Assembly: GCA_964594185.1 (NCBI GenBank)
Contig: CAZQMD010000001.1
Coordinates: 1,585-65,584, forward strand
Reading direction: 5' to 3'
DNA: 64,000 nucleotides
Source: an uncultured Afipia sp.
Lineage (GTDB): Bacteria; Pseudomonadota; Alphaproteobacteria; Rhizobiales; Xanthobacteraceae
The position numbers and the translations under genes are program-made. The notes under the pieces were generated by a model. It saw nothing but the letters and a program-made list of their open reading frames with translations, searched no databases and had not been told where the DNA came from. This document shows, in pieces, positions 14,657 through 43,897 of the stretch. Position 1 is the first letter of the stretch, and the number at the start of each line of letters is the position of its first letter.

Positions 14657-14712
14657 TGGTGCGGACGGCGGGAATCGAACCCGCACGACGTTGCCATCGA
14701 GGGATTTTAAGT
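14657..14712 (-). pseudogene. 3' half of the interrupted host tRNA-Leu(UAA), left island junction
   Basis: Minus strand reads ACTTAAAATCCCTCGATGGCAACGTCGTGCGGGTTCGATTCCCGCCGTCCGCACCA (anticodon loop, long variable arm, T arm, CCA); no 5' half adjacent. Confidence 0.95.
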
Positions 14713-14769
14713 GTACTCAGCCTATATACATCTTATTGAAATCGTTTGATATTTTCGCTTCAAAAAAGT

Positions 14770-14791
14770 GTATGTGTAAAAGACTGTGTAA
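14770..14791 (+). repeat. Putative integrase arm-type sites, left end
   Basis: TGTGTAA at 14773 and 14785; GTATGTGTAA also present at the right end (43756). Confidence 0.65.
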
Positions 14792-14996
14792 AAATTCCCC
14801 GTTTTTGCCCTATTGGACGAACCATTCGCCCATCTGGGCTTCTAGCGATATTTAGGACTTTTTTCCAGAAGAAATCGGATGCGGCTTCAATAGCACTACG
14901 AAACTGCAAAACAGTGTGGCCTGCTTGCCTTTTGCGAAGCTAGTCTCGCCCGCTTTTCCTTACCAAACGGTTTGCAGCACCGATTAGTCCTTTCAT

Positions 14997-16223
14997 TTAC
15001 GCTCCCTGCTGCCGATACCGCTGCGTGATGATGAGACCTATCAGGGCGATGGCTGTGAATCCCGCTCCCGCCAAAAATGTGAAGCGCGGCCCATAGGCAT
15101 CCCACAGCCCGCCCGCGATGACACTGGCGATGAGCATGGCTACCCCGCTCGCAAGATTGAAAATGCCAAACGCGGTTCCGCGCAATCTCTCGGGCGCGGT
15201 GTCGGCTACAAGTGTTGCCAGCAATCCTTGGGTAAGGCCCATGTGAAGTCCCCAGAACACAACACCCAAAAGGACGGCGGGTATCGTGGCCGCGAAGGCA
15301 AGTGTGAGGTCGGCCACAATAAGCATAGAAATGCCCACAAGAAGAATGCCGTTGCGTCCAATGCGATCAGACAGGCTTCCGGCTGGATAGGAAGAGAGCG
15401 CATAGATGACGTTCATCACCACCATCACCACTGGGACGAACGCAATCGGCAAGCCCACGTTCTGTGCTTTCAAGATGAGGAATGCTTCACTGAACCGCGC
15501 CAATGTGAAGATGGCTGCAATGCCCACGACAACCCAAAACGCGCCTGAAAACAACTTCGCATCACGCCAATGCAAACGAGGCTCGCTGGCTTCACTCGTC
15601 GCTTTCTTGGCTGGTTCTTCAACACCATAGACCATGAGACCGAACGCGATGAACGCCGGAATGACTGCAATCCAGAACACCAACTTAAAATTATCGGCTG
15701 TCAGCAGCATGAGGCCGATAGCGAAAAGCGGCCCGACAAATGCGCCAATGGTATCGAGCGATTGCCGCAGGCCAAAGCTCGCGCCGCGCAAATGATCCGG
15801 CGCAATATCGGCAACTAGCGCATCACGCGGCGCACCCCGAATGCCCTTGCCAATCCGGTCAACGAAACGCGCGCCCACGAACCATCCAATGCTGCTTGCC
15901 AATGGAAATACCGGCTTCGTGAAAGCCGCCAAGCCGTAGCCGATGACGGCAAGCAATTTACGTTTGCCGAGCCAATCGGAAATTGCGCCTGAAAATACTT
16001 TGGTAATCATTGCCGTCGCCTCGGCAATGCCTTCGATGAAGCCCACTGTCACCATCGAAGCACCAAGTACGCTGACGAGATAGATCGGAAACAGCGCATG
16101 GATCATCTCCGACGAGATGTCCATGAACATGCTGACGAAGCCGAGTGCCCAAACCCCGCGCGGAATTTGTTTCAGGACATTTGTTTGGGTGGGCGGAATT
16201 GACATTCGGGTTTCGGATTTCAT
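14997..16223 (-). CDS. MFS transporter
   Basis: GAISDWLGKRK and GSLSDRIGR motif A; about 12 TM segments. Confidence 0.9.
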   Translation of the reverse strand: MKSETRMSIPPTQTNVLKQIPRGVWALGFVSMFMDISSEMIHALFPIYLVSVLGASMVTVGFIEGIAEATAMITKVFSGAISDWLGKRKLLAVIGYGLAAFTKPVFPLASSIGWFVGARFVDRIGKGIRGAPRDALVADIAPDHLRGASFGLRQSLDTIGAFVGPLFAIGLMLLTADNFKLVFWIAVIPAFIAFGLMVYGVEEPAKKATSEASEPRLHWRDAKLFSGAFWVVVGIAAIFTLARFSEAFLILKAQNVGLPIAFVPVVMVVMNVIYALSSYPAGSLSDRIGRNGILLVGISMLIVADLTLAFAATIPAVLLGVVFWGLHMGLTQGLLATLVADTAPERLRGTAFGIFNLASGVAMLIASVIAGGLWDAYGPRFTFLAGAGFTAIALIGLIITQRYRQQGA

Positions 16224-16248
16224 TTAGTGTTGATTGTGAACGCCGCCG

Positions 16249-17172
16249 TTATCCTGACGTGCCAGAGGAAAGCACCCGCTCAAGGTTTTTAACCAATGTG
16301 GCCCGCTGAACTGCACTGAGCGTATCAAGGTTTTGCTGACGCCACTTCACTGCCGGTAAGTCCACCGCCGCAGGCACGCCAAGAAGTTCCCACTCTGGCT
16401 GACCCTTTTCAAAAGAAACAAGAAAACGGCGATGCGCGTCAGGCATCTTGCCGACAATACCCGCGATAAGGGCTTCGCGTGCTGCTGAAAGCTCTTCGAG
16501 CGAAACCGGTTCATCCGTCATGCCCGCAAAACCCCGCGCGAATTCCTCGGCAAGCTCTTTGCGTGTGGGTGCGAGAACTTCAAACATGGGTCTGCCATGA
16601 CTGAGCAGATAAACAATGAAGGCATTTCGCAACTCGTCACTGAGGCCTTCTTGCGCCAGCAAGTCCCGAACGTCGAATAGGTCACGCGGATGCTGACGGT
16701 CAAGGGCAGCAACAATTTTTCCAGCATACAAATCGGCAAATGAGACGACGCGCATTTCCGCAAAGCCGAAGGCTTCTTCGACCTGCGGTGAGACCGTGCG
16801 CATTTCGGGTTCAAACACGCAACCGCGTAGCACAGGTGTCACTTCGATTTTGATTTGAACGCCGTCCGCCCGAATGAAGAGTTTCGTCACCGCGCCTTCC
16901 ACACCCGCCTCGGTGAGTTCAGTCGGTTTGATACCCGCATGGATGCGAGCCTTGATTCGCGTCATCGCTGCGCTGATGGCAGCCAGCGATTTCGGACGCG
17001 GCTCAACGGGTAGATAGGTCAGATCAATATCAACTGACAGGCGCGGCATATCGCGGATAAAAAGATTGATCGCTGTGCCGCCTTTCAGGGCAAAGCACGG
17101 CTCTTCTGCGACGTGCGGCAGTGTGCGAACAAGCAGGCTGACCTGCTTGCGGTAAATGTCACTGAACGCCAT
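16249..17172 (-). CDS. abiEii: AbiEii/AbiGii-family nucleotidyltransferase toxin (type IV TA)
   Basis: LKGGTAINLF..RLSVDIDL, GKIVAALDR and RDLFD motifs; overlaps the antitoxin stop. Confidence 0.9.
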   Translation of the reverse strand: MAFSDIYRKQVSLLVRTLPHVAEEPCFALKGGTAINLFIRDMPRLSVDIDLTYLPVEPRPKSLAAISAAMTRIKARIHAGIKPTELTEAGVEGAVTKLFIRADGVQIKIEVTPVLRGCVFEPEMRTVSPQVEEAFGFAEMRVVSFADLYAGKIVAALDRQHPRDLFDVRDLLAQEGLSDELRNAFIVYLLSHGRPMFEVLAPTRKELAEEFARGFAGMTDEPVSLEELSAAREALIAGIVGKMPDAHRRFLVSFEKGQPEWELLGVPAAVDLPAVKWRQQNLDTLSAVQRATLVKNLERVLSSGTSG

Positions 17173-18010
17173 CCAAGTCCTCCGGCACGGTGATCTGAGT
17201 AGCGGGATCAAGTCGCCCACCTTTGACTAACATGCGCTTGCCGGTTCCAAAGTTCACCTGATTCCGATCAAGCCGCTTGTACCAAGCATGGTGATGACGC
17301 TCGGCAAAGAAAAAGAACAGGCGCTTGACCTTCACGCTGCGGCAATCTTGAAGCAATTTTTTCAGCCGTTCTGGACTTAGGCTCGTAAGCCCAGAAAAAA
17401 GCATATCCACTTGATGGAAGCTCTCGTGATGCGGCAACTCATCTAGCAATTGGAGAACAGCGCGCTCGGGCGTTGCAAGCGTAAGCGGCCAATCCCATTG
17501 ACCGTAAGGTTGCTCGATGACACCGCCTCTGAATGAGGTCACATCACGTCCTGAATTTTTCTCAACGTTCCATGACAGGCTGGTGAGTGCTCGTGTTATC
17601 GGCTCATTGGCAAAAAGGCGTTGATCGTTGTGAACAACAAACGCCACGCCGAGCGAAAGGCGCCGCAACCATGCGGGCAATTTTTCGCCACCATAGAGAT
17701 GCACCTCCTTGGTTTTTTGCGGCAGGTAGTGAGCATAGCCTTGGAGTTCGAGAGCGGTGCGGCCTCCCACGACAACTGGGCAACTCAGAATGGTCTGCAA
17801 CGAGATAACCACTTGCTGCCACGTCAGGGGGCCGCGCGGGTTGCGCCAATAGAGCTGACGTGTTGGCTGCTCAAGTCTGCCGGACTTCACGTACTGGCTT
17901 CGCAGCGACGTTGAATAGCCGTGCTTGGTGAGCCACGCGGAATCCACCACAAGCCCCTCGGGAAGGTGCTGCTCAAGCCAGTTTAGCTTATTTTGTTTTT
18001 GCGTAGTCAT
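17159..18010 (-). CDS. abiEi: AbiEi-family antitoxin / transcriptional regulator
   Basis: N-terminal wHTH; GGRTALELQGYAHY, TPERA and SVKVKRLF motifs. Confidence 0.88.
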   Translation of the reverse strand: MTTQKQNKLNWLEQHLPEGLVVDSAWLTKHGYSTSLRSQYVKSGRLEQPTRQLYWRNPRGPLTWQQVVISLQTILSCPVVVGGRTALELQGYAHYLPQKTKEVHLYGGEKLPAWLRRLSLGVAFVVHNDQRLFANEPITRALTSLSWNVEKNSGRDVTSFRGGVIEQPYGQWDWPLTLATPERAVLQLLDELPHHESFHQVDMLFSGLTSLSPERLKKLLQDCRSVKVKRLFFFFAERHHHAWYKRLDRNQVNFGTGKRMLVKGGRLDPATQITVPEDLDGVQ

Positions 18011-18132
18011 GCTACGCATCCTAGCACATTCTCAAACCGATTTCTAGTTTGAAATATGCCTCCAACGCTAAGGTTTTCTTAGCAATTATTGACATTTATA
18101 AACCAATTGGTGGGCCACCTCACCGCATAGAG

Positions 18133-19473
18133 TCACGCCAAAGGTAACGAACTGTGTTCCGGTGTGGGGCTAACGACCGAAGGGATACTAACAGTTACAC
18201 GCAGACCTGATCGCGCGGCACCCCCTATATTTTCTAAGGTCACTGAACCTTCCAACCGTTCGACGATGCGCTTCACAATGGAAAGCCCAAGCCCTGACCC
18301 TTCCTTGACAGCGGCGCTTCCGCGTATAAACGGTTCAAAAATTCGAGCAAGCTCGGCTTCCGGTATTCCCGGCCCATTATCCTCAACCTGAAATATCGCT
18401 CGCGTTCCCTCACGGTAGACCCCTATGTCAATCCTGCCATCAAGCGGGATATGGCGGATGGCATTATCGATCAGATTGCGGATCATGACTTTCAACATCG
18501 TAGGCCCGCCCCGCACGAACACCGCTTCGACGATTTCAAATCCGAGATCGACGTCCCGATCCGCCATGCTCGTCAATACGTCCGCGACAACTTCCTTCGT
18601 GCATTGGTCAAGGGACGTAGCCGGAACATCAATCTTACCCGTCATGTCGTAGCGCGCGAGCGCGAGCAACTGTTCCAGTAGGTGAGCCGTGCGACGGGTG
18701 CCCTCGCGCAACGCCGCCAGCCGCTCGCGGCTTTCCGGCATCAACTCCCCATGGGCAAGATTATCCGCCTGAAGGCTGATGGCGGTGACGGGGGTGCGAA
18801 GCTCATGGGCCGCATCGGCAATGAAGCGCCGTTGCTGGTCGATGAGGCCTTGGACACGTTCCAGCAGACGGTTGATAGAGGCGATAAACGGATGCAATTC
18901 ATCGGGCGTGCCTTCAAGCGGAAGATGTTGAAGATCGTCGGCCTGACGCGCATCAACGCGCTCCGCTAGAGAACGCACTGGCCGCAGCGTTTGGTGGATA
19001 ACCAGACCAACAATCAGCATCAGGAAGGGAATAAGGGCGAGCAACGGCACCACACTACGAAGCGCGCTGTCGCTCGCAATTTCGTCGCGGATCGCGGTGG
19101 GCTGGCCAATCGCTATACGGCTGGCATCCGCGCGCGTCCTAATAAGTACGCGCCAAGGGCCACCGCTTCGTGTGACGGTATGCAGCCCATCGGGCAGGGC
19201 CTGTAGTTTACCTCTCTCATTCAGATCACCACCCGGACCATCGAGCGGTTCGATCACGACTTGCGCTTCGGCATCGACGCCACCGCCCGCAGGCGCGGTG
19301 TCCAGGATATGGATCGCACCTGCCACCGCGCCAATCTGAACGAGGATTGAATCCTGCAACTCGATCGCCTCATCGAACGCCCATTTATAGGCGAGTACAC
19401 CTGCGCACAGACCGGCGACGATAATCGTAATTGTCAGGCTGACGAAAAGTCGGCCACGCAGGGATCGCGTCAT
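18133..19473 (-). CDS. Sensor histidine kinase (QseC/PmrB-like)
   Basis: FIADAAHELRTP H-box; NLIDNA, DNGPG and GSGLGL boxes; two TM segments. Confidence 0.92.
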   Translation of the reverse strand: MTRSLRGRLFVSLTITIIVAGLCAGVLAYKWAFDEAIELQDSILVQIGAVAGAIHILDTAPAGGGVDAEAQVVIEPLDGPGGDLNERGKLQALPDGLHTVTRSGGPWRVLIRTRADASRIAIGQPTAIRDEIASDSALRSVVPLLALIPFLMLIVGLVIHQTLRPVRSLAERVDARQADDLQHLPLEGTPDELHPFIASINRLLERVQGLIDQQRRFIADAAHELRTPVTAISLQADNLAHGELMPESRERLAALREGTRRTAHLLEQLLALARYDMTGKIDVPATSLDQCTKEVVADVLTSMADRDVDLGFEIVEAVFVRGGPTMLKVMIRNLIDNAIRHIPLDGRIDIGVYREGTRAIFQVEDNGPGIPEAELARIFEPFIRGSAAVKEGSGLGLSIVKRIVERLEGSVTLENIGGAARSGLRVTVSIPSVVSPTPEHSSLPLA

Positions 19474-20132
19474 GACGCTCGGTCGACCATCCATCCGACC
19501 CCCCTGACGTTGCGGATAGAAGATACTCCGATTTTCTTACGGATCGCGTGAATCAAAAACTCGATAGCGTTGCTTTCGACTTCCTCGTTCCAGCCGTAAA
19601 TTTGCCGTTCCAGATCGCTGCGCGACAGGATCACGCCCGGCCTTGTCAGGAGCGCTTGCAGCAACGCGAACTCACGCGCGGTGAGGTGGCAGGTTGTTTT
19701 GCCAAGGACGACTTCGTGCGTCGCAGGGTCAAGACTAATGACGCCGTTACTCAATACCGGAGCCGCGCCGCTGCCCGGACGCCGAAGGATGGCGCGCAGC
19801 CGCGCCAACAATTCGCGGATTTCGAAAGGTTTGACCAGATAGTCATCAGCACCGAGGTCAAGCCCATCGATCCGGTCGTCGATACCGTCGCGCGCGGTGA
19901 CGATGATCACGGGAAGCGTTCGGCCACTCTTCCGCAAACGCCGCAACACCTCGCGCCCATCGACGTTGGGAAGGCCTAAGTCGAGCAATGCTGCGTCGTA
20001 GGTTTCTACCTCTGCGGCTTCAATCGCGCTCTCACCCTCGGTGACCCAATCGACCGCGTAGGCGGCATCTTTCAACGCCTGCACTAGCGCCGCGCCCACC
20101 ATGCGGTCATCTTCGATTAACAGCACACGCAT
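19470..20132 (-). CDS. OmpR-family response regulator (QseB/PmrA-like)
   Basis: MRVLLIEDD, LLDLGLP, GADDYLVKPF and IRNVRGVGW motifs. Confidence 0.92.
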   Translation of the reverse strand: MRVLLIEDDRMVGAALVQALKDAAYAVDWVTEGESAIEAAEVETYDAALLDLGLPNVDGREVLRRLRKSGRTLPVIIVTARDGIDDRIDGLDLGADDYLVKPFEIRELLARLRAILRRPGSGAAPVLSNGVISLDPATHEVVLGKTTCHLTAREFALLQALLTRPGVILSRSDLERQIYGWNEEVESNAIEFLIHAIRKKIGVSSIRNVRGVGWMVDRAS

Positions 20133-20202
20133 TCGTTCCCCTGTCAGCGTAACCGGCGGCGTATTCCTGTCCGCCGCCGACTTTCGCATAGGCTTATGTA
20201 AC

Positions 20203-20538
20203 TCAATCGGTCTTATCGCCGTCATCGTCGTTATCGGCGGTGTCCTCCGTCGAGGCTAGGACGATACCATTCACGGCATCGACTTTCACGTCGAAAACCT
20301 TGGAGGCGGTTTTTACTTCGACATCGTAGACCCAGCCGCCGCCCTTTTGAGCTTCGTATTCGGCGCGGACCGCTTTGCCTCGAACGTGCTTTTCGGCGAC
20401 TGCAACTGCGGTGTTCATGGATACCTTTGCAGATGCAATCGGCCCTGCGTCATTGGTCGAAACCGTCGCGGTTTCAGCGAACGCGGCGGTCGAGAACAAA
20501 AGGGCAGCAGCACAAGCGGGAATTAGGAATCGGGACAT
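20203..20538 (-). CDS. PepSY-domain exported protein
   Basis: Signal peptide; YDVEV...VKVDAVNG motif; AGGAG ribosome-binding site. Confidence 0.85.
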   Translation of the reverse strand: MSRFLIPACAAALLFSTAAFAETATVSTNDAGPIASAKVSMNTAVAVAEKHVRGKAVRAEYEAQKGGGWVYDVEVKTASKVFDVKVDAVNGIVLASTEDTADNDDDGDKTD

Positions 20539-20588
20539 GTTGTATTCTCCTTTGGTTGGTTGGAACGCACGATTGATTGCGACTCAGA

Positions 20589-20683
20589 CTTAGCAGGGCC
20601 TTAGCGATTACGGCGACGCATGTGCCAACAATAGGACATTGCGTAACGATTCCTGAGCGACCGTTCCTAAGTCGCCGCTAAGT
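20589..20683. promoter_or_regulatory. Paired OmpR-family regulator boxes for the divergent promoters
   Basis: CTTAGC-N5-CTTAGC (20589-20605) and oppositely oriented CTAAGT-N5-CTAAGT (20667-20683), both with 11-bp period. Confidence 0.6.
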
Positions 20684-20760
20684 GAGCACTCGCATGGTGA
20701 TGTCCTGACAATCGTGCGGCCAACGCTTCGGGAGCACACATCAAAAAAGGAATTGAACCC

Positions 20761-21549
20761 ATGAGCGCACGACCAAGCGAAAAACTTCAGGCCATGCTCA
20801 ATAAAGTCCCGGAAGTTACGCTGGCCTTCTGGGTCATCAAGATCATGTCGACCACTGTCGGTGAAACCGGCGCAGACTATCTGGCGGTCCATGTCGGATT
20901 GGGCACCGCCGCCACCGGCGCAATCATGATTGCGCTGCTCGCTGCTATACTGTTTCTACAAGTGCGGGCACGACGCTATGTGCCTTGGATTTATTGGCTG
21001 ACAGTGGTGCTGGTGAGCATCGTCGGCACCCAGATTACCGATGCCCTGACCGATGGCTTAGGGGTTAGTCTTTATGTGAGCACGGCGGCATTCGCCGCAG
21101 CCCTGTCAGCGACGTTCGCAGCTTGGTATTGGAGCGAACGCACGCTCTCGATCCACTCCATCGTTACGAGGCGACGCGAGCTGTTCTATTGGCTGGCAAT
21201 TTTGTTCACCTTCGCACTGGGCACAGCCTCGGGCGATCTCGCCACCGAAGCGCTCGGGCTCGGATTTACACTCGGCACCGTGGTGTTCGGCGCATTGATT
21301 GCCGTCATTGGTGCTGCCAACGCGCTTGGGGCAAATTCTGTCCTGACCTTCTGGCTTGCCTATATCCTCACCCGGCCGCTAGGCGCTTCACTCGGCGATC
21401 TGATGTCGCAGGCGCACGAATATGGCGGTTTGGGTCTCGGCACGCTCTATACCAGCCTCGGGTTTCTTGCCGTCATCGTCGCACTCCTAATCTACCTTAG
21501 CGTAAACGACAGACATGCTCGCCGCCGACGCATCGCAGGCATAGCCTGA
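20761..21549 (+). CDS. COG4705 (DUF347 repeat) membrane protein
   Basis: KVPEVTLAFWVIKIMSTTVGET, ALGTASGD and LTRPLGAS motifs. Confidence 0.85.
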   Translation: MSARPSEKLQAMLNKVPEVTLAFWVIKIMSTTVGETGADYLAVHVGLGTAATGAIMIALLAAILFLQVRARRYVPWIYWLTVVLVSIVGTQITDALTDGLGVSLYVSTAAFAAALSATFAAWYWSERTLSIHSIVTRRRELFYWLAILFTFALGTASGDLATEALGLGFTLGTVVFGALIAVIGAANALGANSVLTFWLAYILTRPLGASLGDLMSQAHEYGGLGLGTLYTSLGFLAVIVALLIYLSVNDRHARRRRIAGIA

Positions 21550-21628
21550 TGCTCGTATGTTTTATCGCTTCCATTTCCAACCAAGGGTCTCGCGATGATG
21601 CGCACCCTTTAACAACAGGAGACACTCC

Positions 21629-22033
21629 GTGAAAAATCGAAGGCTATTTTTGTCAGCGGGCATCTTGGCTGCGCTTGCTGGACCCGCATCGTTCGGGTCA
21701 ATGATTGCGGTGTCGTTATTCGTGCCGACCCAAGCGGTAGCGGCTTCCAAGCTTGGCGATCTCTCGAAGTTTCGTACTATCGCTGCCGACAGCGCCGGCC
21801 TTGTTGGCAAAGGCGATCTTGCGGGGGCAAAGACGCGCATCAAGGATTTGGAAATGGCGTGGGATGAAGCGGAAGCGGGATTGAAGCCGCGTGACGCCGC
21901 CACTTGGCACGTCATCGACAAAGCGATCGACCGCGCACTTTCGGCGCTGCGTGCCAGCACCCCGGATGCGGGCAGTTGCAAGCAATCATTGGACGATTTA
22001 CTTGCGACCTTGAATGCCACTGGGAATCCCTAA
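21629..22033 (+). CDS. Exported helical hypothetical protein
   Basis: Signal peptide; [13 protein letters not shown] motif; AGGAG ribosome-binding site. Confidence 0.7.
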
Positions 22034-22097
22034 ACAATCGATAATCGCCCGATGACATGCATTGGGGCGTAGCGGTAGCTAACTGCTTACCGCTCAA

Positions 22098-22880: not shown

Positions 22881-22937
22881 TCAGGATGGATTGAGGCTAC
22901 CGTTCTTCGTATAGCGCATCATTTCGCTTCAAAATTA

Positions 22938-25346: not shown

Positions 25347-25348
25347 GC

Positions 25349-26071: not shown

Positions 26072-26136
26072 CGCCGTACCTTGTCCGAAGGTCACGGGGC
26101 TGAAGATGCCCTAGAGCGAGGATAAAGGATAGAGGA

Positions 26137-26457: not shown

Positions 26458-26510
26458 ACGGCCTCCATTAGCAATGAGGTCATTCTACGATATTTCGGCC
26501 TCTTATGGAA

Positions 26511-26753: not shown

Positions 26754-26881
26754 ATCGATAGCCGCGAACTTCGCGGCGAAAAGAGTGATGATGGCGGAGC
26801 GCTCTGCTCCGTAGGTAGAGAACCGGCGGGACTTGGCCCCATCCGATGCGGGCGGCCGTGCGGGCCGCTGACGGTGCCCGC

Positions 26882-32176: not shown

Positions 32177-32209
32177 GGGTTCAAGCGATGCAAAAATCCC
32201 TGACCTCGA

Positions 32210-34888: not shown

Positions 34889-36558
34889 GCGTCATCTCCT
34901 TCGTCAAACAAGCCAGGTTGTTTTGCTGGAGGAGCGTTCTTTGCCTTCGTCTCAGCCTGCGGAAGATTGGCGACGTTGAGGCTGTAGTCGTCATGCCCCC
35001 ACTCGCAACGGCTGCGGATGTGGTTTGGTATCTTACGGATAGTTAGATTCGGCCAAAGTTGGACATTACCACGAAACGCAGCACAAAGGATCAACAGCGA
35101 ACGGCCTTCGCCAACCTCCTCGCTTAATGCGGCCAGCTCCTGCGGCCCCAATGTCTGGGTGGTGACATAGAGGAAATCGCTTTCCGATGAGTGGCCTTGC
35201 TGCCAATACACGTCGGGGCTAGGTGCATAGGTAAAGCCTTCGAGTTTGCACAACGCTTGCGCCAGCATGGCGGGGTTATAATCTTTTGAAATGACCTCAC
35301 GGCCCCATTTGTCTTTCTCTAGCAACGATGGAGCGAGTTCATAGTAGCGAAACCCGCCGCCACCTTTCCAGTCGAATACACTGCTAATGCCGCCGGGGTC
35401 TTCATCATCAATCACTTTTTGCAAGCGCGGCACGATATGAGTATCGCAAGTGGCTTCTAACTCCACCATGATCCAGCGACGGCCCATTTTATGCGCGGCA
35501 GCGCCTGTCGTCCCTGAACCAGCAAATGAGTCTAAGACAAGATCGCCAGCGATGGTGCACATCGAAAGGATTCTCTCGATGAGTGGTTCAGGCTTTGGGG
35601 TGTCGAACTCGTTGCTTGTACCAAAGATTTCTTTTTGGTGGGCTTTAGTCTGCCGGGTAGTCGGCAGGTCCGTCCAAAGGCTGTTATATGGGCGGGTCGG
35701 GGCATCTTTAGCGTACTCTCGGGTATAGGGTACCCAATTTGGCTTTCCCGGTTCTCCGCGATTTTTCCAGACCAGCTCTGAATTTTTAACAAGCTCGTCG
35801 ACCGAGTCCTTGCCAAGCGCCCATCGGGCTTCTCGGCCATCATCGTGGATCGGAAATACCTCTCGACCGTCCGGGTCGATGACGGGAAACCACATCGTAG
35901 GTCTATCGGCTCTAAGACTGCTTTTTCCGTTCTTCTTTAACAGTCGGTCACGATAGTACCGTCCATCATCGTCTGGCCCGCGATATGCCCTAAGCAATTC
36001 AGGATCAGCTTTGGGCCTCAACCTGACTTTACTGATGTCCTTCGCATATCCGTAAATAAATTCATGATCGGGCGTGACAGGAACCTTATTATCGTTTGGG
36101 CTATCAACTTTCCGCCACAAGAACGTGGAGATAAAATTCGTGCGACCAAAAATCTCGTCGCAAAGCACCTTCAGATAGTGTCCCTCGTTATCATCTGCCT
36201 GAACAAACAAAGCGCCATCCATCGCTAAAAGGCTTCGCAGTATTTCGAGCCTGTCACGCATGAGGCCCAGCCAAATGGAGTGCTCCACTCCATCGTCATA
36301 GTGTTTGAACGCGCTGCCCGTGTTGTAGGGCGGATCGATATAAACGCACTTCACTTTGCCTGCAAAATCAGCTTCCAGCGCTTTCAGCGCGAGCAGATTG
36401 TCGCCGTGGATTAGAATATTGTCGAAAATATCATTCTCGCTCACCCGTGTAGCGGCATGATGAGACTTTTCAGTATCTTCAATTAGGATGCGCGGCTCCA
36501 GACGAGGTCGATTTTCTTTTCCCACCCATGTCAGTTCAAGTTTTTGTTTTTTGCTCAT
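34885..36558 (-). CDS. mod: Type III DNA adenine methyltransferase, Mod subunit
   Basis: IHGDNL, IDPPYNTG, TPKPE and VLDSFAGSGTT motifs (beta-class order). Confidence 0.93.
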   Translation of the reverse strand: MSKKQKLELTWVGKENRPRLEPRILIEDTEKSHHAATRVSENDIFDNILIHGDNLLALKALEADFAGKVKCVYIDPPYNTGSAFKHYDDGVEHSIWLGLMRDRLEILRSLLAMDGALFVQADDNEGHYLKVLCDEIFGRTNFISTFLWRKVDSPNDNKVPVTPDHEFIYGYAKDISKVRLRPKADPELLRAYRGPDDDGRYYRDRLLKKNGKSSLRADRPTMWFPVIDPDGREVFPIHDDGREARWALGKDSVDELVKNSELVWKNRGEPGKPNWVPYTREYAKDAPTRPYNSLWTDLPTTRQTKAHQKEIFGTSNEFDTPKPEPLIERILSMCTIAGDLVLDSFAGSGTTGAAAHKMGRRWIMVELEATCDTHIVPRLQKVIDDEDPGGISSVFDWKGGGGFRYYELAPSLLEKDKWGREVISKDYNPAMLAQALCKLEGFTYAPSPDVYWQQGHSSESDFLYVTTQTLGPQELAALSEEVGEGRSLLILCAAFRGNVQLWPNLTIRKIPNHIRSRCEWGHDDYSLNVANLPQAETKAKNAPPAKQPGLFDEGDDA

Positions 36559-36565
36559 GAGCGAC

Positions 36566-38887
36566 CTAGCTTGGTTTTTTTAGAGGGTGCAGACGACGGG
36601 AATCGGCGCTGTTGCGCCAATAGCTGCCGGACTTATCGTTACTCGGCCAACCGTGATCGGGGTGCGTGAGCGCATCGACTAGCAGAACGACGTGTTTCGC
36701 GAAGCCCACTGCATCTGCGTCTAAAAGCTCGAAGGAAATGGCTTTGAAATGAGCGCCAAAGGCATTTCGGGCCTGTGCGATGCGCGTCAGTTCATCAAGG
36801 ATCGGCTTCAATTCGACTGTGCTGTTTGACGGTGCGGTCGCACTCGTCAGACCGTCGCGCAGTTCAACCCTCAAGGCTTCCCGTAGCTTTCCGCTGATAG
36901 CGGGCAACAAGTCGCCTAGCGTGTATGCCGCCCCATGCCGTCGCGGAACGGCGCATTCGTATTTCTGAGTAAGGTAGTCCAGCACTGCCTCAAGGACGAC
37001 CCCCGCTTTGCTACAAATTGCTTGAGGGTCAATTGGTGACTCGTTGAGCAACGCTTTTAGGCGGTCAATTTCAGGCAGCGAACTGACAACACGAATTCCG
37101 TCGTCAATCGCCCATCCCGTCAGTTCAACGAACTGGCACGCCTGTCCAGGCTTGAGCCAACCCCACCGGAATTTTTCACGCCACGGGCGATAATGGGTAG
37201 TAACAATGGTGTGCTGAAATTTCGTGCTCAGCTCGTAGATCATACCGATGACGCGCTCAACGTGCGGCTCATCTACGCTACCTAATACGTCGTCCAAAAT
37301 TAAGACGGTTTCCGCAGATCGATCGCGTGCGGCCAGCGCCAAGAACACACAAAGACCTAATGTGTCTAAGTGGGATTGGCTGAAGTAAGCCTGAGGTGGC
37401 GCATCGAGCCCCGCGAATTTGGCCATTAGTTCCATCGATGCGCGTTTGGCCGGATCAAGAGGCAGCGCAATAGCGTCTAATCCCTCGCCGGGGTGAACGG
37501 CCTCATAGAGTTTGCCTACCTCCTGCGCGATTTCAGAAATTATGCCGTCGGTAAATTTCTGACGTTCTTCCACGCACTGCGTCAGCGCCCGGTCAACCTT
37601 TGGCGTCAAACTTTCTAATTCTTTACGGCGCGTGACATTGGATTCGTAGCGTTCGGATGCGGTCTTCAGTGCCGCGACAAATTTCTTTTCTTCATGCCAC
37701 GAGGCTTCTACCGCAGGCCATGAACCCGCCACGGCGGCGTTGTCCGCCAACCATGCTGCCAGCTTAGACGGCTCCGTCGGCGCAGCATTGGAAGGCAATT
37801 TTACTTCCGTTTTCCAGCTATGGCTTTTCTGTGCCGCATCGAATGCCGAAATTGCCTTCTGGTAATCAGTTTCAGCCAGCGTGAGGGCCGCCTCCGCGCT
37901 GTTAAGTGCAATCTGTTGTTTCTTCTTAGCTGCGTCGGCGGCTTTCAGCGAGGCAAGGTTTTTGAGCCGTTCTTCAATCGACGCAGCAAGTCCACTGATC
38001 TTGTCGTCGCTCCCGCACAACGGACACTCGGCGACGTCAGGGTGGGCGTGCAGGTAGTCGTGGCCTGTTTGAAGCACGGCCAGCGCTTCACCTGCACCTT
38101 CGGTGGCTGATGCGATTGCATCGGTCAGAGCTTTCTCAGCCGTCGCTAAGGCATCCCTTGCTGCGGCGACAGCGACCCGGTGGGATTCAAACCTTTCGGG
38201 AAACCCCTTGAGGGCGTCGAACGCCGTTCGCAATTTTCCAATCGCGGTGATGTCTGCGCCAAGCTCAGTCACCGGCTCGGCCAATTTCTTCTTTGCCCAT
38301 GTGACGGGATTCAGCCCGGCGGGCTTTCCGGCGGCATCGTAAAAGCCCTGCAACGTGGCAAGGTTTTCATTTTCGGCGACCTGGGCCTGCTGCTTTTCGG
38401 CGGCAAGCGTCTTGCCAAGCTGTCGAAGTGTCTCCTCCGAACGCTCGAAGGCGTCGATGTCGATGAAGCGTTTGATCTTTCCGTAACGCTCTGCCGGTTG
38501 AGCCTGAATTAATTCGAGTATTTGGCGCTGTCTTAGAAGTTCAATTCGCGGACGCGCCGACACCGGAGAAACCGAGGCCTTCTTGCTAACGACCGTACCC
38601 GTGCATTTAGCGGCGCTCGTTTCCAGATCAATTCGAAGTGCCGATGCTGGTTTTCCGGCAGTCGGCCAAAATCGTTCCAGCCCCTTGCCCATGCCACGGT
38701 CCTCAATCGAGCCGACCCTTTCAAAGGCGAGGAATTCGAAGGCGTCGCAGATTGTTGTCTTGCCGGTGCCGTTCTCACCGTAGATGAGCGTAAGTTTCTT
38801 GCCTTTTTCGAAGTCGAGCTTGAACGTGGCGCTAGAGCCACGAAAGGCGGTAAGAGTAAGAGATTTCAATGCTGCGGTCGGGGTCAT
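36566..38887 (-). CDS. Rad50/SMC-like ABC ATPase with zinc hook and C-terminal HEPN-like domain (RloC-like)
   Basis: GENGTGKT Walker A; coiled coil with CPLC; FSQSH signature; LILDD Walker B; TTH; C-terminal VLEAVL...RNAFGAH (R-X5-H). Confidence 0.75.
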   Translation of the reverse strand: MTPTAALKSLTLTAFRGSSATFKLDFEKGKKLTLIYGENGTGKTTICDAFEFLAFERVGSIEDRGMGKGLERFWPTAGKPASALRIDLETSAAKCTGTVVSKKASVSPVSARPRIELLRQRQILELIQAQPAERYGKIKRFIDIDAFERSEETLRQLGKTLAAEKQQAQVAENENLATLQGFYDAAGKPAGLNPVTWAKKKLAEPVTELGADITAIGKLRTAFDALKGFPERFESHRVAVAAARDALATAEKALTDAIASATEGAGEALAVLQTGHDYLHAHPDVAECPLCGSDDKISGLAASIEERLKNLASLKAADAAKKKQQIALNSAEAALTLAETDYQKAISAFDAAQKSHSWKTEVKLPSNAAPTEPSKLAAWLADNAAVAGSWPAVEASWHEEKKFVAALKTASERYESNVTRRKELESLTPKVDRALTQCVEERQKFTDGIISEIAQEVGKLYEAVHPGEGLDAIALPLDPAKRASMELMAKFAGLDAPPQAYFSQSHLDTLGLCVFLALAARDRSAETVLILDDVLGSVDEPHVERVIGMIYELSTKFQHTIVTTHYRPWREKFRWGWLKPGQACQFVELTGWAIDDGIRVVSSLPEIDRLKALLNESPIDPQAICSKAGVVLEAVLDYLTQKYECAVPRRHGAAYTLGDLLPAISGKLREALRVELRDGLTSATAPSNSTVELKPILDELTRIAQARNAFGAHFKAISFELLDADAVGFAKHVVLLVDALTHPDHGWPSNDKSGSYWRNSADSRRLHPLKKPS

Positions 38888-39069
38888 GATTTGCCCGCCT
38901 TCATCGACGCGAGATCAATTTCGCTTTTCCAATCCTCACCCTTCATCGTCCCCGATGCGATCTTCGCGATCAATCCGTCACGCTTATCGGGCCGCAAAAG
39001 ACCGGACGCGATCAACCGATCAACTGTCAATGCGGCTAACTTTGCCGACGGCACCGCTTCATCGCTCAT
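38884..39069 (-). CDS. Small hypothetical protein (61 aa) coupled to helicase and ATPase genes
   Basis: ATGA overlaps at both ends; GGAGG ribosome-binding site. Confidence 0.75.
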   Translation of the reverse strand: MSDEAVPSAKLAALTVDRLIASGLLRPDKRDGLIAKIASGTMKGEDWKSEIDLASMKAGKS

Positions 39070-41939
39070 TGCACCCTCCACCTAATCGTGAAGAGCGGTT
39101 GCACGTCGATCTTCTGCTCCAGTTTTCCTTCGATCTGGGCGATAAGCTCCGTGCGCTGCTCGTCAATTTTGTCCTGTGCGTCGAACAGCGAACGCCGTTT
39201 TGTCGAGCGTTCCGCTTCAAGGGCCTTCACCGCCTTCTGTCCTGCGAGTTTATCTTCTAACGTCAGCGCAACGGTGGCCGCGCGCCGCGCTTCCTTGATC
39301 TGGCGATCCAGTTCTTTCAATTCTCGTTCAAGACCAACCTTCAAGTCATCAGCCCAGCCGTCCAACTTATCTGCTTCGGCTTCGAAGAAACGTGCGTTGC
39401 GCTCAGAAATGTCGCGGCGAATCTTTGACTGCTGCGTGAGCAAGTCATCGGCCAAACCTGACGAAATATCTTGTGGCGCGCTAACCTCTGACCCAACCGA
39501 TCCACCAATGGTCATCAGGCGAGAAGTAGCTTCGTTCCCCAGTGCAGCACCATCATCGCTCATACCCGAAAGCAATAGATGATCTTCGCTCTGACCGAGC
39601 GCATCAACTGACAAGAGTGATGCCATCAGCCAACCTGACTTGCCTACAAGTGGCTCTACCTGCGAAATGCGCCCTGCATGACGCGAGTAGTCCAAAATAA
39701 GTTCTGCGGTCGGCAATTTCCGTGAACGCGCACGGGAAACGATGGCCTCTCCTAGAGGATGATTGATGCGGAAAAAGTGCGCCTCGCCTGAACGGCGCGG
39801 AAGTTCATAAAGTCCAGTTGGAATACTCGCTCCCGAAATCCAGCTCGGCAAGGCATTTAACCTGAACGATGATGAATCGATGAAGTTTGCCACACCGTCC
39901 AGTTCATGCTTGGCGAGACGCATCAACTGCTGCTCAAACTGATTGAGGTGCAGATTGGTGTCGGCATTACGGACTTTCAGCTTTTCGCGAACCTCGTCGT
40001 CGAAATTTTCGAGTAACTTCTGACGCGCATGAGTCATTGCCTGATTGATCTCTAGCGTCAGCTCCTGCTGGAGCTGGTCGAAGGCCGCTTTGATTTCGCC
40101 AGTCTGACGGCATTGCTGGTAGATGCCTGCAATGCGCTTTTCAAAATCAACTCCTGATTCAATGACGCCCAACACCTCGTCACTTGCACCAAACACGCCC
40201 TCGAATAGTTGGAACTTCTCCGATAAAAGCTCATAGACGCGCTGATCGGCTTCATTTTTCTGATTGAGGAAATTTACGACGACGACATCGTGCTTTTGGC
40301 CGTAGCGATGGCAGCGACCGATACGCTGCTCGATCCGCTGAGGGTTCCACGGAAGATCGTAGTTCACCACCATCGCGCAGAATTGCAGATTGATGCCTTC
40401 TGCTCCGGCTTCTGTGGCAATCATTATTTTTCCGCGTTCCCGAAAATAATCGACCAAAGCCGAGCGCATGTCAGCGGTCTTGGAACCCGTGACACGATCC
40501 GACCCGGCGTGACGCGCCAGCCATTCTTTAAAGATGGCTTTGGACTGTTCGTCGGTATTCGTTCCGTTGAACAGAACGATGTGGTCGGCAAACGGACTCT
40601 CGGCGAGGACACGAAGCAGATAGGATTGCGTACGCCTAGATTCAGTAAAAATAATCGCCTTTTCGTCCGCACCATGCTCGCGTGCCTTAGCAAAACCCAC
40701 TTCTAACGCTTTTAGAAGTGCGCGTCCTTTGGCATTCTGTTCGATAGACGTTGCCAAAGTGGCAAACTCACGAAGCTCGATAATTTCAAGCTCTAATGCT
40801 CGCTGGTCGGCCTCGGTCAACAATTCAGCGTCATCGTCCGGCCACTCATCCGCCGTTTCATTAAGTGCTTCGTAGTCTTCATCGAGTTCATCGACGAGCG
40901 ATGTTGGCCTGCTTTGATCTAGCCGCTTTTGAAGGCGGTTGGAAATGGATGTTAGTGCACCCGCAATGGCGAATGTCGAAGACGCGAGTAGTTTTCGCAG
41001 GACGAGCGTCATCAGCGAACGCTGGCTGGCAGGTAATGCCTGAAGATTGTCACGCTGCAAGTAAGCGGTAACCAGATTATACAACTTGTCTTCGGCTTCG
41101 TCGGGGTTGAATTTTTCAAGGATCGCGTGGCGCTTGGTGTAGGGAACGTAAGCAGTTACCTGACGCCGCAATGTGCGGTGGCAAATTGGCTTCAAACGCT
41201 CTTTCAAAATCTGGAACGTGCGTTCTTGAGTGCCACCGCCAAATTGATCACGAAAGCTCTTCAAATCACCGAATGTGTGTTCGTCAATGAAGCTCACTAA
41301 GCCGTAAAGCTCCAAGAGCGAGTTCTGTAGCGGTGTGGCTGTCAACAGCAGTTTATTCCGCTCGGCAAGTGCGCCTTTCAGCGTGTTGGCGATGACATTG
41401 GACGGCTTGTAAACATTGCGCAGGCGGTGTGCTTCGTCGATAACCACCAAATCCCAAGGGATGGCGTGAACATCGACTGCCTTGTTCCTCGCAAATTGGT
41501 AGGAGCAAATTACGATGCTGTCAGTTCGATCAAAAGGACGAAAATTTCCCGCTTTGACTTCAGCATTGTAAGGTTTTGATTCCATGATGGTGCATGGAAT
41601 GAAAAACTTCTCATTCAATTCCTGATGCCACTGCTTACGCAGGTTGGAGGGCGCGATAATGAGAATCCGCCGCTTCATCTCGGCCCATCGCTGCGAAATC
41701 ACGAGTCCAGCTTCGATGGTTTTACCAAGCCCAACTTCATCGGCCAGTAATGCGCCCTTTGAAAGGGGCGAAGCGAAGGCAAATAGGGCTGCGTCCACCT
41801 GATGTGGATTCATATCGACTTGAGCGCCTGCGACAGCGACTGCCAGCTTCTCAGAGCTGTCAGACGCGCGCCGCCTTGTTAATTCATATGCGAACAGCTT
41901 GGCGTGATAATCAGTCGATGATGCAATGGTCTCCTGCAC
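39066..41939 (-). CDS. SNF2/RapA-like helicase
   Basis: LLADEVGLGKT, DEAH, LTATP, EGINLQ and YDLPWNPQRIEQRIGRCHRYGQ motifs; C-terminal coiled coil. Confidence 0.92.
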   Translation of the reverse strand: MQETIASSTDYHAKLFAYELTRRRASDSSEKLAVAVAGAQVDMNPHQVDAALFAFASPLSKGALLADEVGLGKTIEAGLVISQRWAEMKRRILIIAPSNLRKQWHQELNEKFFIPCTIMESKPYNAEVKAGNFRPFDRTDSIVICSYQFARNKAVDVHAIPWDLVVIDEAHRLRNVYKPSNVIANTLKGALAERNKLLLTATPLQNSLLELYGLVSFIDEHTFGDLKSFRDQFGGGTQERTFQILKERLKPICHRTLRRQVTAYVPYTKRHAILEKFNPDEAEDKLYNLVTAYLQRDNLQALPASQRSLMTLVLRKLLASSTFAIAGALTSISNRLQKRLDQSRPTSLVDELDEDYEALNETADEWPDDDAELLTEADQRALELEIIELREFATLATSIEQNAKGRALLKALEVGFAKAREHGADEKAIIFTESRRTQSYLLRVLAESPFADHIVLFNGTNTDEQSKAIFKEWLARHAGSDRVTGSKTADMRSALVDYFRERGKIMIATEAGAEGINLQFCAMVVNYDLPWNPQRIEQRIGRCHRYGQKHDVVVVNFLNQKNEADQRVYELLSEKFQLFEGVFGASDEVLGVIESGVDFEKRIAGIYQQCRQTGEIKAAFDQLQQELTLEINQAMTHARQKLLENFDDEVREKLKVRNADTNLHLNQFEQQLMRLAKHELDGVANFIDSSSFRLNALPSWISGASIPTGLYELPRRSGEAHFFRINHPLGEAIVSRARSRKLPTAELILDYSRHAGRISQVEPLVGKSGWLMASLLSVDALGQSEDHLLLSGMSDDGAALGNEATSRLMTIGGSVGSEVSAPQDISSGLADDLLTQQSKIRRDISERNARFFEAEADKLDGWADDLKVGLERELKELDRQIKEARRAATVALTLEDKLAGQKAVKALEAERSTKRRSLFDAQDKIDEQRTELIAQIEGKLEQKIDVQPLFTIRWRVQ

Positions 41940-42064
41940 GCGCGCCTCATGTTAGCGACGATTTAGCCCGCCGGGCGGACGAACCTTGATCGCCTTGTCA
42001 ATCTCTTCATCGGTATTGCGGGAGACGTAATCCCGACGAATTTCTCGGATTGAGAAACTCAAAT

Positions 42065-42403
42065 TGGTGCGGGCGGCCGGAATCGAACCGGCACGGGGTT
42101 ACCCCCAACGGATTTTCTTACCAGCTTCGGCTTTCGCCGCCTCGCCGTTGCACGTTTGTGCTTAGGCGAGTTCGTGGTCTGGACTATCCCTTCACCGTGG
42201 CGTTCGCCGTGAAGCGATAGCGTTAGGTGCTGCCCGTCTAGTCTCTACACCTTCCCTCGGGCACGTTTGTGCTTCGAGGGCTTGGCTCGGGATTGCCATC
42301 TGACAGGTTTCCCCGATTTTGAGCAGTTCTGCATCTCGGGTTTCCCTGAGAGCACTCAATTTCCGTTTAAGTCCGTTGCGTCTACCAGTTCCGCCACGTC
42401 CGC
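42065..42403 (-). tRNA. trnL: Island-encoded tRNA-Leu(UAA) with group I intron (exons 42403-42369 and 42116-42065; 87 nt spliced)
   Basis: Spliced product GCGGACGTGGCGGAACTGGTAGACGCAACGGACTT^AAAATCCGTTGGGGGTAACCCCGTGCCGGTTCGATTCCGGCCGCCCGCACCA folds as a cloverleaf: ACGGA/TCCGT anticodon stem, long variable arm, encoded CCA. Confidence 0.93.
42117..42368 (-). ncRNA. Group I self-splicing intron (252 nt, IC3/tRNA type), no ORF
   Basis: Inserted after U34; ends in G; P1 ACUU^AA/UUGAGU with U.G at the splice site; core elements AAAUCGGGGAAAC, AAUCCCGAGC, GUAGAGACUAGACGG and AAGGGAUAGUCC resemble P, Q, R, S of trnL/Azoarcus introns. Confidence 0.92.
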
Positions 42404-42415
42404 ATACCGCCACAT

Positions 42416-42444
42416 TTATAGGCGTGACCCCCATGACAAGCCAA
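42416..42444 (-). promoter_or_regulatory. Putative sigma70 promoter of the island tRNA
   Basis: TTGGCT-N17-CTATAA, 12 bp upstream of tRNA G1. Confidence 0.55.
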
Positions 42445-42469
42445 GGAATTTTTATGCAGGTCCAAGGAG

Positions 42470-43660
42470 TTAGTCTTTTGCAGCCTTCTTTTGGGTTTTC
42501 TTCACGTTTTTTGCACTTGGCTTCGGCCTGCGAATATTGATGGCCGCCGCATCAAGACTGGTTTTGATGTGTGAGGCGTAATATTTCTCGATCATCTCCA
42601 CGCTGGTGCGACAGTTCTTGGCGATCTGGTAGATGTCCGCACCTTCCATCAAGCGTAGGCAGATGTAGGTATGCCGTAAGCTGTACGCGGTGCGGCGATT
42701 GCCTTCGCGATCGAACTTGAGTTCTTCCTCATCGAGGATAGCGTTGAAAAGCTCTCGATGACCCTTCGGAAAAATCCGGTCGGTCGGCTTCGGGTTGTTG
42801 CGTTTCTTCAATCGCTCAAACGGAAGCACGGCCCCATTCGTGCTCTTGCAATATCCGACGCCGCGCTTGCCGCGTACTTCAATTTCCAAGATCGTCTCTT
42901 CTGTGGACTCGTCATCGACGACAGTCACGTCCCGATATTCCAGTCGTGCGACTTCATCGGGACGCAAGCCGGTGTTCACCATGAACAGCACATAGTCGTG
43001 AAGCTGTTCACCTTGCCACGCGTAGCGTTTGCGTTTTGGATTCTGTGCCCGATGCCGTGTGGCCGTGTAGAGCTTCTTGTATTCTTCCGGCGAGAACCAC
43101 GCACGATGAGAGACTTTTCCGTTCGTCTTGTACGGCTCAGAAAGGTCAGGAATGTATTGAATCCAGCCGTGGCGCGCTGCTGTTTTTAGCACCTGACGTA
43201 GCGTCACGATCTCTTGGTGCATCGTGTTGCGCGCGGGCGGTTTGCCACGCGCAGCAACCGTCTCCTCCCGCCGATGAATGCGGTATTCCTGCAAGAGGCC
43301 GGGGGTGACTTGCAATAGCGTCTTTTTGCCAAAGAAGGGGAGAAGGTGAATGTCGAGCCTTCGCATGTGCCCTTCGACATACTGAGGGTTGCGCTGTCCT
43401 TCGGTGATGATTTCGTATTCGCGGCGAAATTGGTCGGCGGCTATCTTGAAGCTCTTGCCGCCAATGACTTCACCGGCGCGGTGTTTGCCCTTCAACTCAA
43501 GATACCAATCCTCGGCGAAGTCCTTCGCATGTTCGAGGCTTTCTTCTTTCGTGGTCACGCGCCGGTTACGGCCCGCGAGAAATGTCGAGCACTGCCAGTG
43601 ACGGCTGTTCTCGCGTTTGTAGAGATGGAGTTTTCCTCCCATCAATTCGTGATGTGCCAT
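42470..43660 (-). CDS. int: Tyrosine recombinase / integrase
   Basis: NTGLRPDE, GKRG, YSLRHTY and RTSVEMIEKYY motifs; adjacent to the att site. Confidence 0.93.
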   Translation of the reverse strand: MAHHELMGGKLHLYKRENSRHWQCSTFLAGRNRRVTTKEESLEHAKDFAEDWYLELKGKHRAGEVIGGKSFKIAADQFRREYEIITEGQRNPQYVEGHMRRLDIHLLPFFGKKTLLQVTPGLLQEYRIHRREETVAARGKPPARNTMHQEIVTLRQVLKTAARHGWIQYIPDLSEPYKTNGKVSHRAWFSPEEYKKLYTATRHRAQNPKRKRYAWQGEQLHDYVLFMVNTGLRPDEVARLEYRDVTVVDDESTEETILEIEVRGKRGVGYCKSTNGAVLPFERLKKRNNPKPTDRIFPKGHRELFNAILDEEELKFDREGNRRTAYSLRHTYICLRLMEGADIYQIAKNCRTSVEMIEKYYASHIKTSLDAAAINIRRPKPSAKNVKKTQKKAAKD

Positions 43661-43681
43661 GCTGGCCTCTTCCACATTCGC

Positions 43682-43765
43682 TTACACAGTTTGCACAAGT
43701 TGAAGCGGATCAGACTTCGCGTTGTGTGCGCCCGAAAAAGCGCATTTTGTGTAACGTATGTGTAA
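43682..43765. repeat. Putative integrase arm-type sites, right end
   Basis: TGTGTAA at 43748 and 43759; inverted copy TTACACA at 43682. Confidence 0.65.
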
Positions 43766-43858
43766 GGGTATTTTGGTCTTTTTTGGATGTCAAATTGTTT
43801 AGTTATCTATATGATTTTATTAGAAAAATTGTCTAATAAAAATGTTATGCTTGTGTGC

Positions 43859-43897
43859 TTTTAAGTCCCTTGCGTCTACCAATTCCGCCACGTCCGC
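43859..43897 (-). pseudogene. 5' half of the interrupted host tRNA-Leu(UAA), right island junction
   Basis: Minus strand reads GCGGACGTGGCGGAATTGGTAGACGCAAGGGACTTAAAA then non-tRNA AT-rich DNA; pairs perfectly with the 14657-14712 half. Confidence 0.95.

Follow-up and report, generated by a model that had tools for sequence, protein, structure and literature searches.

In this study, we describe how a mobilizable island in an uncultured Afipia sp. has inserted into the anticodon loop of the host tRNA-Leu(UAA) gene, leaving an 8-bp core repeated at its two ends, and appears to have replaced the gene it broke with a copy of its own that carries a likely self-splicing group I intron. The DNA analysed is a stretch of 64,000 nucleotides (GenBank assembly GCA_964594185.1, contig CAZQMD010000001.1, positions 1,585 to 65,584), hereafter called the window, and we put the probability of this reading at roughly 85%. 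It rests on the split gene itself, on the island-borne copy next to the integrase gene, and on a survey of related integrases in which broken targets and replacement copies recur together.

The two halves of the host gene lie at opposite ends of the island (Table 1) and overlap by exactly 8 bases, ACTTAAAA, which end the 5' half (43859-43866) and begin the 3' half (14705-14712). The core copies are 29,154 bp apart and correspond to tRNA positions 31 to 38 (A31-A38), that is, to the anticodon loop. The preliminary description of this DNA had claimed that the halves join through the shared 8 bp into a perfect 87-nt tRNA-Leu(UAA), and ARAGORN indeed calls the in-silico join as an 87-nt tRNA-Leu(TAA) with all stems paired; the same program finds no intronless tRNA in the window, in agreement with the further claim that neither junction rebuilds a tRNA. 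The core sequence occurs 27 times in the 5.6-Mb genome; despite this, chance placement can be rejected, because relatives carry an identical intact tRNA between colinear flanks. Comparison with island-free relatives bears this out: of the 19 same-genus loci, 15 carry the tRNA-Leu(TAA) gene whole and without an intron, and 10 of these match both halves at 100% identity. In L004, L006, L008 and L013, the left and right flanks of the window are colinear and meet across the intact gene. Two of the 19 have only the 5' half, followed in L005 by an integrase and the beginning of a second tRNA and lying in L007 at a contig end, and another two have no tRNA in the fetched stretch. Judged from these alignments, it is the gene of the native locus that has been split. 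In two relatives (L002 and L003), the intact tRNA together with its promoter region lies inverted with respect to the adjoining metallophosphoesterase gene. In the window, the host tRNA promoter and 5' half are directed into the integrase gene some 200 bp downstream (43660-43897), and integration may thus put this gene under the host tRNA promoter; a hairpin lies between the two at 43726-43745.

The replacement occupies 42403-42065 on the minus strand and begins 66 bp after the integrase stop (the open reading frame, ORF, ends at 42470), where a different, complete tRNA-Leu(UAA) had been claimed. Once its intron is removed in silico, ARAGORN calls this gene too as an 87-nt tRNA-Leu(TAA); its anticodon stem, variable arm and T stem are unlike those of the host gene. 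Default runs of ARAGORN and of Rfam at its gathering thresholds returned no match to it in the window; the tRNA was found with the intron mode of ARAGORN and the intron with the E-value mode of Rfam. In the latter, the intron matches Intron_gpI (RF00028) over the whole model (47.2 bits, E 7.7e-11). Its fold reaches z -5.1 against shuffles, and a P1 helix folds between exon and intron in the window, with the exon U paired to an intron G; the P1 guide motif is present in all 37 complete introns found beside related integrases. The intron is too short for a homing endonuclease, and it divides the 8-bp core into 4+4. The gene had also been credited with its own promoter, of which there remains a promoter-like pair of hexamers read by eye; a consensus promoter scan did not report it, and the promoter and terminator counts of that scan over the window are at chance level. 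Two RNA runs of one study (X16 and X17) each contain one contig that is confined to the unspliced intron-tRNA (lengths 310 and 352 nt, with 1 difference, at depths of 26 and 34), and the adjoining integrase is without such cover, which is a hint of transcription of the island tRNA and not of splicing. The sole 252-nt skip in RNA contigs comes from a divergent relative, and runs X18 and X20 hold divergent relatives only.

Decoding of UUA codons requires the UAA isoacceptor. Neither ARAGORN nor blastn nor a search for TAA anticodon arms found another tRNA-Leu(UAA) in the draft genome; the only complete UAA tRNA found there is the island copy, and tRNA-Leu genes for CAA, CAG, GAG and TAG are present. 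TTA makes up 1,004 of 108,841 leucine codons (0.9%) and is found in 744 of 2,495 long ORFs from a crude call. The island copy therefore likely supplies the cell's only UUA decoder, as far as the draft sequence goes, and UUA decoding would depend on this copy and on its splicing. The defence genes of the island (32210-41939) contain 10, 9, 5 and 4 TTA codons, compared with 0-3 in most island genes, and are thus rich enough in TTA that the cargo itself would need a UAA tRNA.

How general is this arrangement? A search with the integrase gave 587 confirmed relatives among 606 stretches scanned, of which the best 80 loci were used (61-95% identity, with L021 the closest at 95%); these span Pseudomonadota, Acidobacteriota, Planctomycetota, Gemmatimonadota, Nitrospinota and others. 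At about 160-240 bp upstream of the integrase gene, 65 of the 80 carry a broken tRNA-Leu half (61 recognized by pattern, 4 by eye). The remaining loci have only the core (7/80), no upstream DNA (2/80), or an intact tRNA or 3' half (6/80), and none of these last six has a full tRNA after the integrase. Directly after the integrase gene, an intron-bearing UAA copy is found in 42 of 80 loci (37 of them complete and 5 truncated at contig ends or by a gap), an intronless UAA copy in one (L033), a CAA copy in 10 and a UAG copy in two, such that 42 of 43 adjacent UAA copies have an intron and none of the 12 CAA and UAG copies does. One downstream call, in L070, was spurious and is excluded from these counts, which near-copies inflate. 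Wherever both the target core and the adjacent copy could be read, their anticodons agree (53/53; UAA 42, CAA 9, UAG 2). Over the integrase tree (quick maximum likelihood, L028 left out owing to stops in its translated frame), there are at least 18 changes of state label and the states of the adjacent copies alternate; therefore, anticodon matching has been kept through several target switches. Moreover, orphan host 3' halves were found at the far ends of the islands, of about 20-60 kb, in five of five UAA genomes and three of five CAA genomes checked. As such, the linkage between integrase, split target and replacement tRNA is strongly positive over the 80 loci, and together with the island copy being the sole UAA tRNA found in the draft, it supports well the break-and-replace strategy that had been proposed for this DNA.

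The family also holds members that depart from this pattern. Five loci (L063, L072, L080, L090 and L093) restore the target; in L063, the restored CAA tRNA stands upstream and a decayed intron end with the 3' exon downstream of the integrase stop, and in L069 and L081 only 3' remnants of a tRNA remain after the integrase, which suggests that replacement copies decay once they are not needed at that place. In two Acidobacteria loci (L101 in G042 and L102 in G041), the far-end repeat reaches 17-32 bases into the tRNA 5' half, covering the D arm and anticodon stem, and ends short of the acceptor stem, so that the gene is still not rebuilt. The UAG-targeting loci L046 and L047 have the core in the opposite orientation, and in L047 it is the 3' half of the host gene that adjoins the integrase instead of the 5' half. 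One genome (G049; L128, L133, L138 and L143) combines one intact CAA tRNA with at least three orphan 3' halves, which suggests repeated or tandem integrations.

Searching from the intron, we found similar introns in 34 of 400 genomes of the same class and 64 of 400 of the same family. The 58 best-scoring loci were fetched, of which 3 are tRNA-Arg introns and 55 Leu(UAA). An integrase of the present family lies directly upstream in 16 of these 55 and does not in 39, and a Pfam search of 105 larger ORFs from the 39 loci found no integrase. In this set, all 53 intron copies with both exons read have fully paired stems. Five near-complete integrase-less genomes gave no integrase homologue with this query; in all five no full UAA gene besides the intron copy was seen, and in three an orphan or decayed host 3' half lies 0.5-4.5 kb downstream of it. 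That integrase-less intron copies are host/island hybrids was rejected, given the fully paired stems and exons that are not host-type in the closest cases. The native locus of a related genus (g18), visible in 30 of 61 fetched loci, holds the whole series: 21 loci with an intact intronless gene, one with a half and this integrase, two with halves and no integrase in reach, five with an intron copy in native position without integrase, and one without tRNA in the stretch. An integrase-less mini-element (L216 in G309) has the host 5' half about 260 bp before its intron copy and the 3' half about 1 kb after it. From these stages we infer, as the simplest reading, a life cycle in which the gene is split and replaced, the integrase lost and the intron copy kept; the integrase-less copies at the native locus then suggest a route by which introns become fixed in host tRNA genes. 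In some lineages, the intron may instead have invaded the native gene directly, as some intronless native genes resemble the exons of intron copies. The preliminary description had held that the end of the island with integrase and tRNA could be lost only by precise excision. For the integrase this does not stand, as shown by intron copies without it at the native locus or before orphan 3' halves, and it likely does for the tRNA itself.

These relationships make it likely that related islands help to spread tRNA-Leu group I introns between bacteria. A bolder proposal, which we consider possible and hold only tentatively, is that this one integrase family is a main vehicle of tRNA-Leu(UAA) group I introns outside cyanobacteria: the host gene would be destroyed, the cell would come to depend on an intron copy beyond the reach of the island's own integrase, and later deletion of the integrase would leave this copy as a permanent, integration-proof native gene. 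If true, the ribozyme would be a DNA-level immunity device, and addiction to the island the missing mobility route of an endonuclease-free intron. The intron-tRNA also matches 1,278 plasmid records, at full length in several Bradyrhizobium plasmids; a partial version (the first 234 of 339 bases, about 72% identity) occurs in many Escherichia, Klebsiella, Salmonella and Acinetobacter plasmids, unannotated among the matches listed.

The mechanism we propose would start with the tyrosine integrase binding arm repeats of the TGTGTAA type and exchanging strands in the anticodon loop (A31-A38). The island tRNA would then be transcribed, its group I intron spliced out between U34 and A35, and the mature island tRNA would take over from the destroyed host tRNA. 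The island copy would not look like the bacterial attachment site (attB), because the intron interrupts it exactly within the core. Loss of the island tRNA by deletion would be lethal unless precise excision restores the site, and the integrase itself could be lost.

Several observations nevertheless weigh against the replacement of a broken host gene by a functional island copy. In 16 of the 80 loci, all CAA, no tRNA lies within 520 nt after the integrase, and three UAA loci likewise lack one, two of them (L054 and L077) with enough DNA and one at a contig end. Of the CAA loci without an adjacent tRNA, three that were checked carry a full, different CAA tRNA deeper in the island, and one has an intact copy elsewhere. 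We rejected the idea that CAA islands drop the replacement since a UAA tRNA reads UUG, as the three split genomes checked all have that CAA tRNA deeper. The score of the intron falls below the Rfam gathering score of 50, and the island tRNA carries an A5.C68 acceptor mismatch; the latter was discarded as the mark of a dead copy, as this mismatch is also present in native tRNA-Leu(UAA) genes of genus g18. Contigs of four RNA runs contain no spliced junction of this strain, where contigs cannot show absence, and those of four DNA runs contain neither an excised circle nor an empty site, where contigs drop rare forms. Lastly, the draft consists of 616 contigs and is 94.28% complete, so a second UAA gene could be missing from it.

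This last point, and the fact that tRNA genes often drop out of assemblies, would allow a second intact tRNA-Leu(UAA) elsewhere in the genome and make the island copy a dispensable extra. We consider this improbable: the split gene sits at the native locus, the five near-complete integrase-less relatives show the intron copy as their only full UAA gene, and the matching of anticodons over 53 readable loci argues for selection. Still further from likely is that the whole arrangement is an assembly artefact at a repeated tRNA, even though the draft is of a metagenome type and two similar tRNA 5' ends lie 1.5 kb apart. Misassembly at the junctions was the danger named in the preliminary description, and the left junction is bridged without difference by contigs of three runs (X3, a possible source, and X6 and X7, which are not flagged as such). 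The right junction is not bridged by contigs of the RNA runs, the only runs compared there, but the right-end layout of the window recurs in L005, L021, L266 and dozens of unrelated genomes.

So why does the replacement carry an intron at all? As an addition to the break-and-replace reading, the intron could break the core in DNA and restore it in RNA, thereby hiding the copy from the island's own integrase and from related ones that come in. In favour of this, the insertion point divides the 8-bp core, and all 37 complete intron copies keep the host-like bases that flank the loop (G30-A31, T39-C40), whereas 9 of 11 intronless UAA and CAA copies beside an integrase alter them. Such a change occurs in 1 of 150 listed UAA and CAA tRNA-Leu genes of genomes from the same phylum (73 further matches stand outside this list) and in 6 of 125 chromosomal genes of the phylum of G050, counted without G193 and the island copy; the changed copies fall at about four separate places of the tree. 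Furthermore, the fixed intron copies of genus g18 stand in for the target at the native site. Yet six of the nine changed copies belong to one Acidobacteria lineage, and intronless CAA copies inside islands (L105-L107) as well as the adjacent ones of L026 and L075 keep the flanking bases. The integrase moreover tolerates changes at the loop flanks, because the target half of L036 has T31 and the flanks on the side of attP, the attachment site of the element, vary, those of the window included. None of seven non-canonical background tRNAs has an integrase of this family nearby, for which reason an altered 31:39 pair was also rejected as a marker of island copies. Finally, U34/A35 is simply the invariable site of this intron class (bioRxiv 10.1101/2020.01.27.920355).

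Conversely, the intron may be a neutral passenger of the Leu.3Ug class, already present in the tRNA gene that the ancestral island captured and open only to precise loss, since the tRNA would be essential; its overlap with the core would then reflect no more than a shared target, the anticodon loop. The classical intron site of tRNA-Leu(UAA) is Leu.3Ug (bioRxiv 10.1101/2020.01.27.920355), and the way the intron follows the anticodon (UAA 42/43; CAA and UAG 0/12) is expected if splicing needs U34. The intron state is spread over the whole tree, which is compatible with one inheritance, and L033 works with an intronless UAA copy. What a neutral intron leaves unexplained are the altered loop-flanking pairs of the intronless copies, which are nearly invariant in chromosomal genes. 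We hold the odds between these two explanations to be about even, and a shielding of the island copy by its intron to be plausible.

Table 1. Features of the island and of the split host gene in the window; a dot stands for features without a single strand.
Feature	Position	Strand	Basis or remark
Host tRNA-Leu(UAA) 5' half, 39 nt	43859..43897	-	integrase-side junction, identical to relatives' intact gene
Host tRNA-Leu(UAA) 3' half, 56 nt	14657..14712	-	far junction, identical to relatives' intact gene
Island tRNA-Leu(UAA) exon 1, 35 nt, ends at U34	42369..42403	-	
Group I intron, 252 nt, between U34 and A35, terminal G	42117..42368	-	RF00028, fold, P1 helix
Island tRNA-Leu(UAA) exon 2, 52 nt, encoded CCA	42065..42116	-	
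Promoter-like hexamer pair before island tRNA	42415..42444	-	read by eye, weak
Tyrosine integrase, 396 aa	42470..43660	-	Pfam Phage_integrase and SAM-like (both weak); PHROG 1, E 3e-28
TGTGTAA/TTACACA-like repeats at 43682, 43691, 43748, 43759	43682..43765	.	predicted integrase arm-type sites
Two TGTGTAA repeats inside far end	14773..14791	.	predicted arm-type sites
Island body	14713..43858	.	GC content 0.55 versus 0.61/0.62 in flanks; circle predicted on excision, 29,154 bp
Defence block: DrmD-like SNF2 helicase, SMC-like ATPase, type III restriction-modification methylase and restriction subunit	32210..41939	-	
Mobilization block: ParB-like, DUF2958, relaxase, coupling protein	22938..31411	-	
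MobA/MobQ-like relaxase	26882-27847	-	mobilization block
VirD4/TraG-like coupling protein	22938-25346	-	mobilization block
Cargo: major facilitator superfamily (MFS) transporter, PepSY, response regulator and histidine kinase, two DUF347 genes	14997..22880	.	
AbiEi/AbiEii toxin-antitoxin pair	16249-18019	.	within cargo

The body of the island (Table 1) encodes an integrase, a relaxase and a coupling protein, the NCBIfam matches of the mobilization block lying below their cut-offs; no mating-pair genes of its own were found, and several small ORFs are without a family. Its gene content fits an integrative mobilizable element best. A prophage was rejected as an alternative: neither the 18 proteins scanned in PHROGs nor the ORFs scanned in Pfam include a phage structural gene, and 50,697 phage records gave no match to the integrase. 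At the place where tyrosine recombinases usually have the first His of the HxxR motif, the integrase has Tyr326, a residue shared by at least 97% of the 80 aligned proteins. Repeats similar to the predicted arm-type sites lie before the far core of homologous islands. The AbiEi/AbiEii pair is a possible second stabiliser of the island, and related nucleotidyltransferase toxins act on tRNA ends. ARAGORN also called a two-piece tmRNA, which points to an alphaproteobacterial host, and a look-alike search by place gave no matches.

What appears to be new here is break-and-replace by a non-phage element with an intron-bearing copy; break-and-replace itself is already known from actinobacteriophages, as far as the accessible text of PMC10865867 goes. 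Our findings extend tRNA-dependent integration from these phages to non-phage islands of several phyla, a question that this text leaves open, and they offer a testable route by which endonuclease-free tRNA-Leu group I introns could reach scattered bacteria. Within one genus, a single locus occurs in three states: intact, split with the integrase present, and occupied by nothing but the intron copy. The island also offers a bacterial case, open to tests at the bench, of the idea that introns protect tRNA genes from integration. Such islands and their tRNAs are easily missed, as the blank default runs of ARAGORN and Rfam on the window illustrate, and island finders would likely pass over them where they require a displaced tRNA fragment. 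Of interest to specialists would be the family outside phages, its switching of targets with matched anticodons, and the route by which a group I intron apparently becomes fixed in host tRNA genes, all of them directly testable. Literature searches, beyond whose reach most subscription papers lay, returned no description of an intron-bearing replacement tRNA on an island.

Classical tRNA-targeting islands and integrative mobilizable elements have an integrase at one end, low GC content, defence and toxin-antitoxin cargo, a relaxase and a coupling protein, and the present island resembles them in all of these. In the restoring design, the element carries the displaced tRNA fragment and the gene is restored (accessible text of PMC10865867); the island of the window lacks this fragment, and the gene stays broken. 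It is in the tRNA-dependent lysogeny of actinobacteriophages (Fionnbharth, Cluster L and Gaia; Guerrero-Bustamante and Hatfull 2024, PMC10865867, here and below from its accessible text) that break-and-replace has been published. The likeness includes a tyrosine integrase, an attB within a host tRNA gene, no tRNA rebuilt, and an isotype-matched tRNA on the element. Cores there measure 8-17 bp, against 8 bp here, and in Gaia the core is 8 bp long and lies in tRNA-Leu(CAA), the phage's own tRNA standing downstream of the integrase gene. Close relatives switch between restoring and replacing among those phages and in this integrase family alike. In contrast, our island is a non-phage element with relaxase and coupling protein, its UAA copy has a group I intron, and its integrase family occurs in Pseudomonadota, Acidobacteriota, Planctomycetota and others. 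It thus works like tRNA-dependent lysogeny and falls outside that class because it is not a phage. In the accessible text, the word 'intron' occurs once, in a reference title.

Bacterial tRNA-Leu(UAA) group I introns form class Leu.3Ug of subgroup IC3 (Williams 2020, bioRxiv 10.1101/2020.01.27.920355). By its sequence, the island intron is an ordinary member, with the site after U34, a U at -1, a terminal G, a P1 with U.G and a size near 250 nt. The main text of that study does not link these introns to integrases or islands, whereas such a link exists in 16 of our 55 loci. In archaea, intron gain at attB has been proposed as a protection against integrating elements (Randau and Soll, as cited in Sugahara et al. 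2012, PMC3293823, accessible text). As in that proposal, an intron in the attachment site would block recombination and may favour the element that brings it. The archaeal case, in the accessible text of PMC3293823, concerns protein-spliced introns and one population example, with the intron arriving in the attP of a restored gene; here, the intron is bacterial and of group I, and its gene is a full one that stands 1.5 kb apart from the attachment site.

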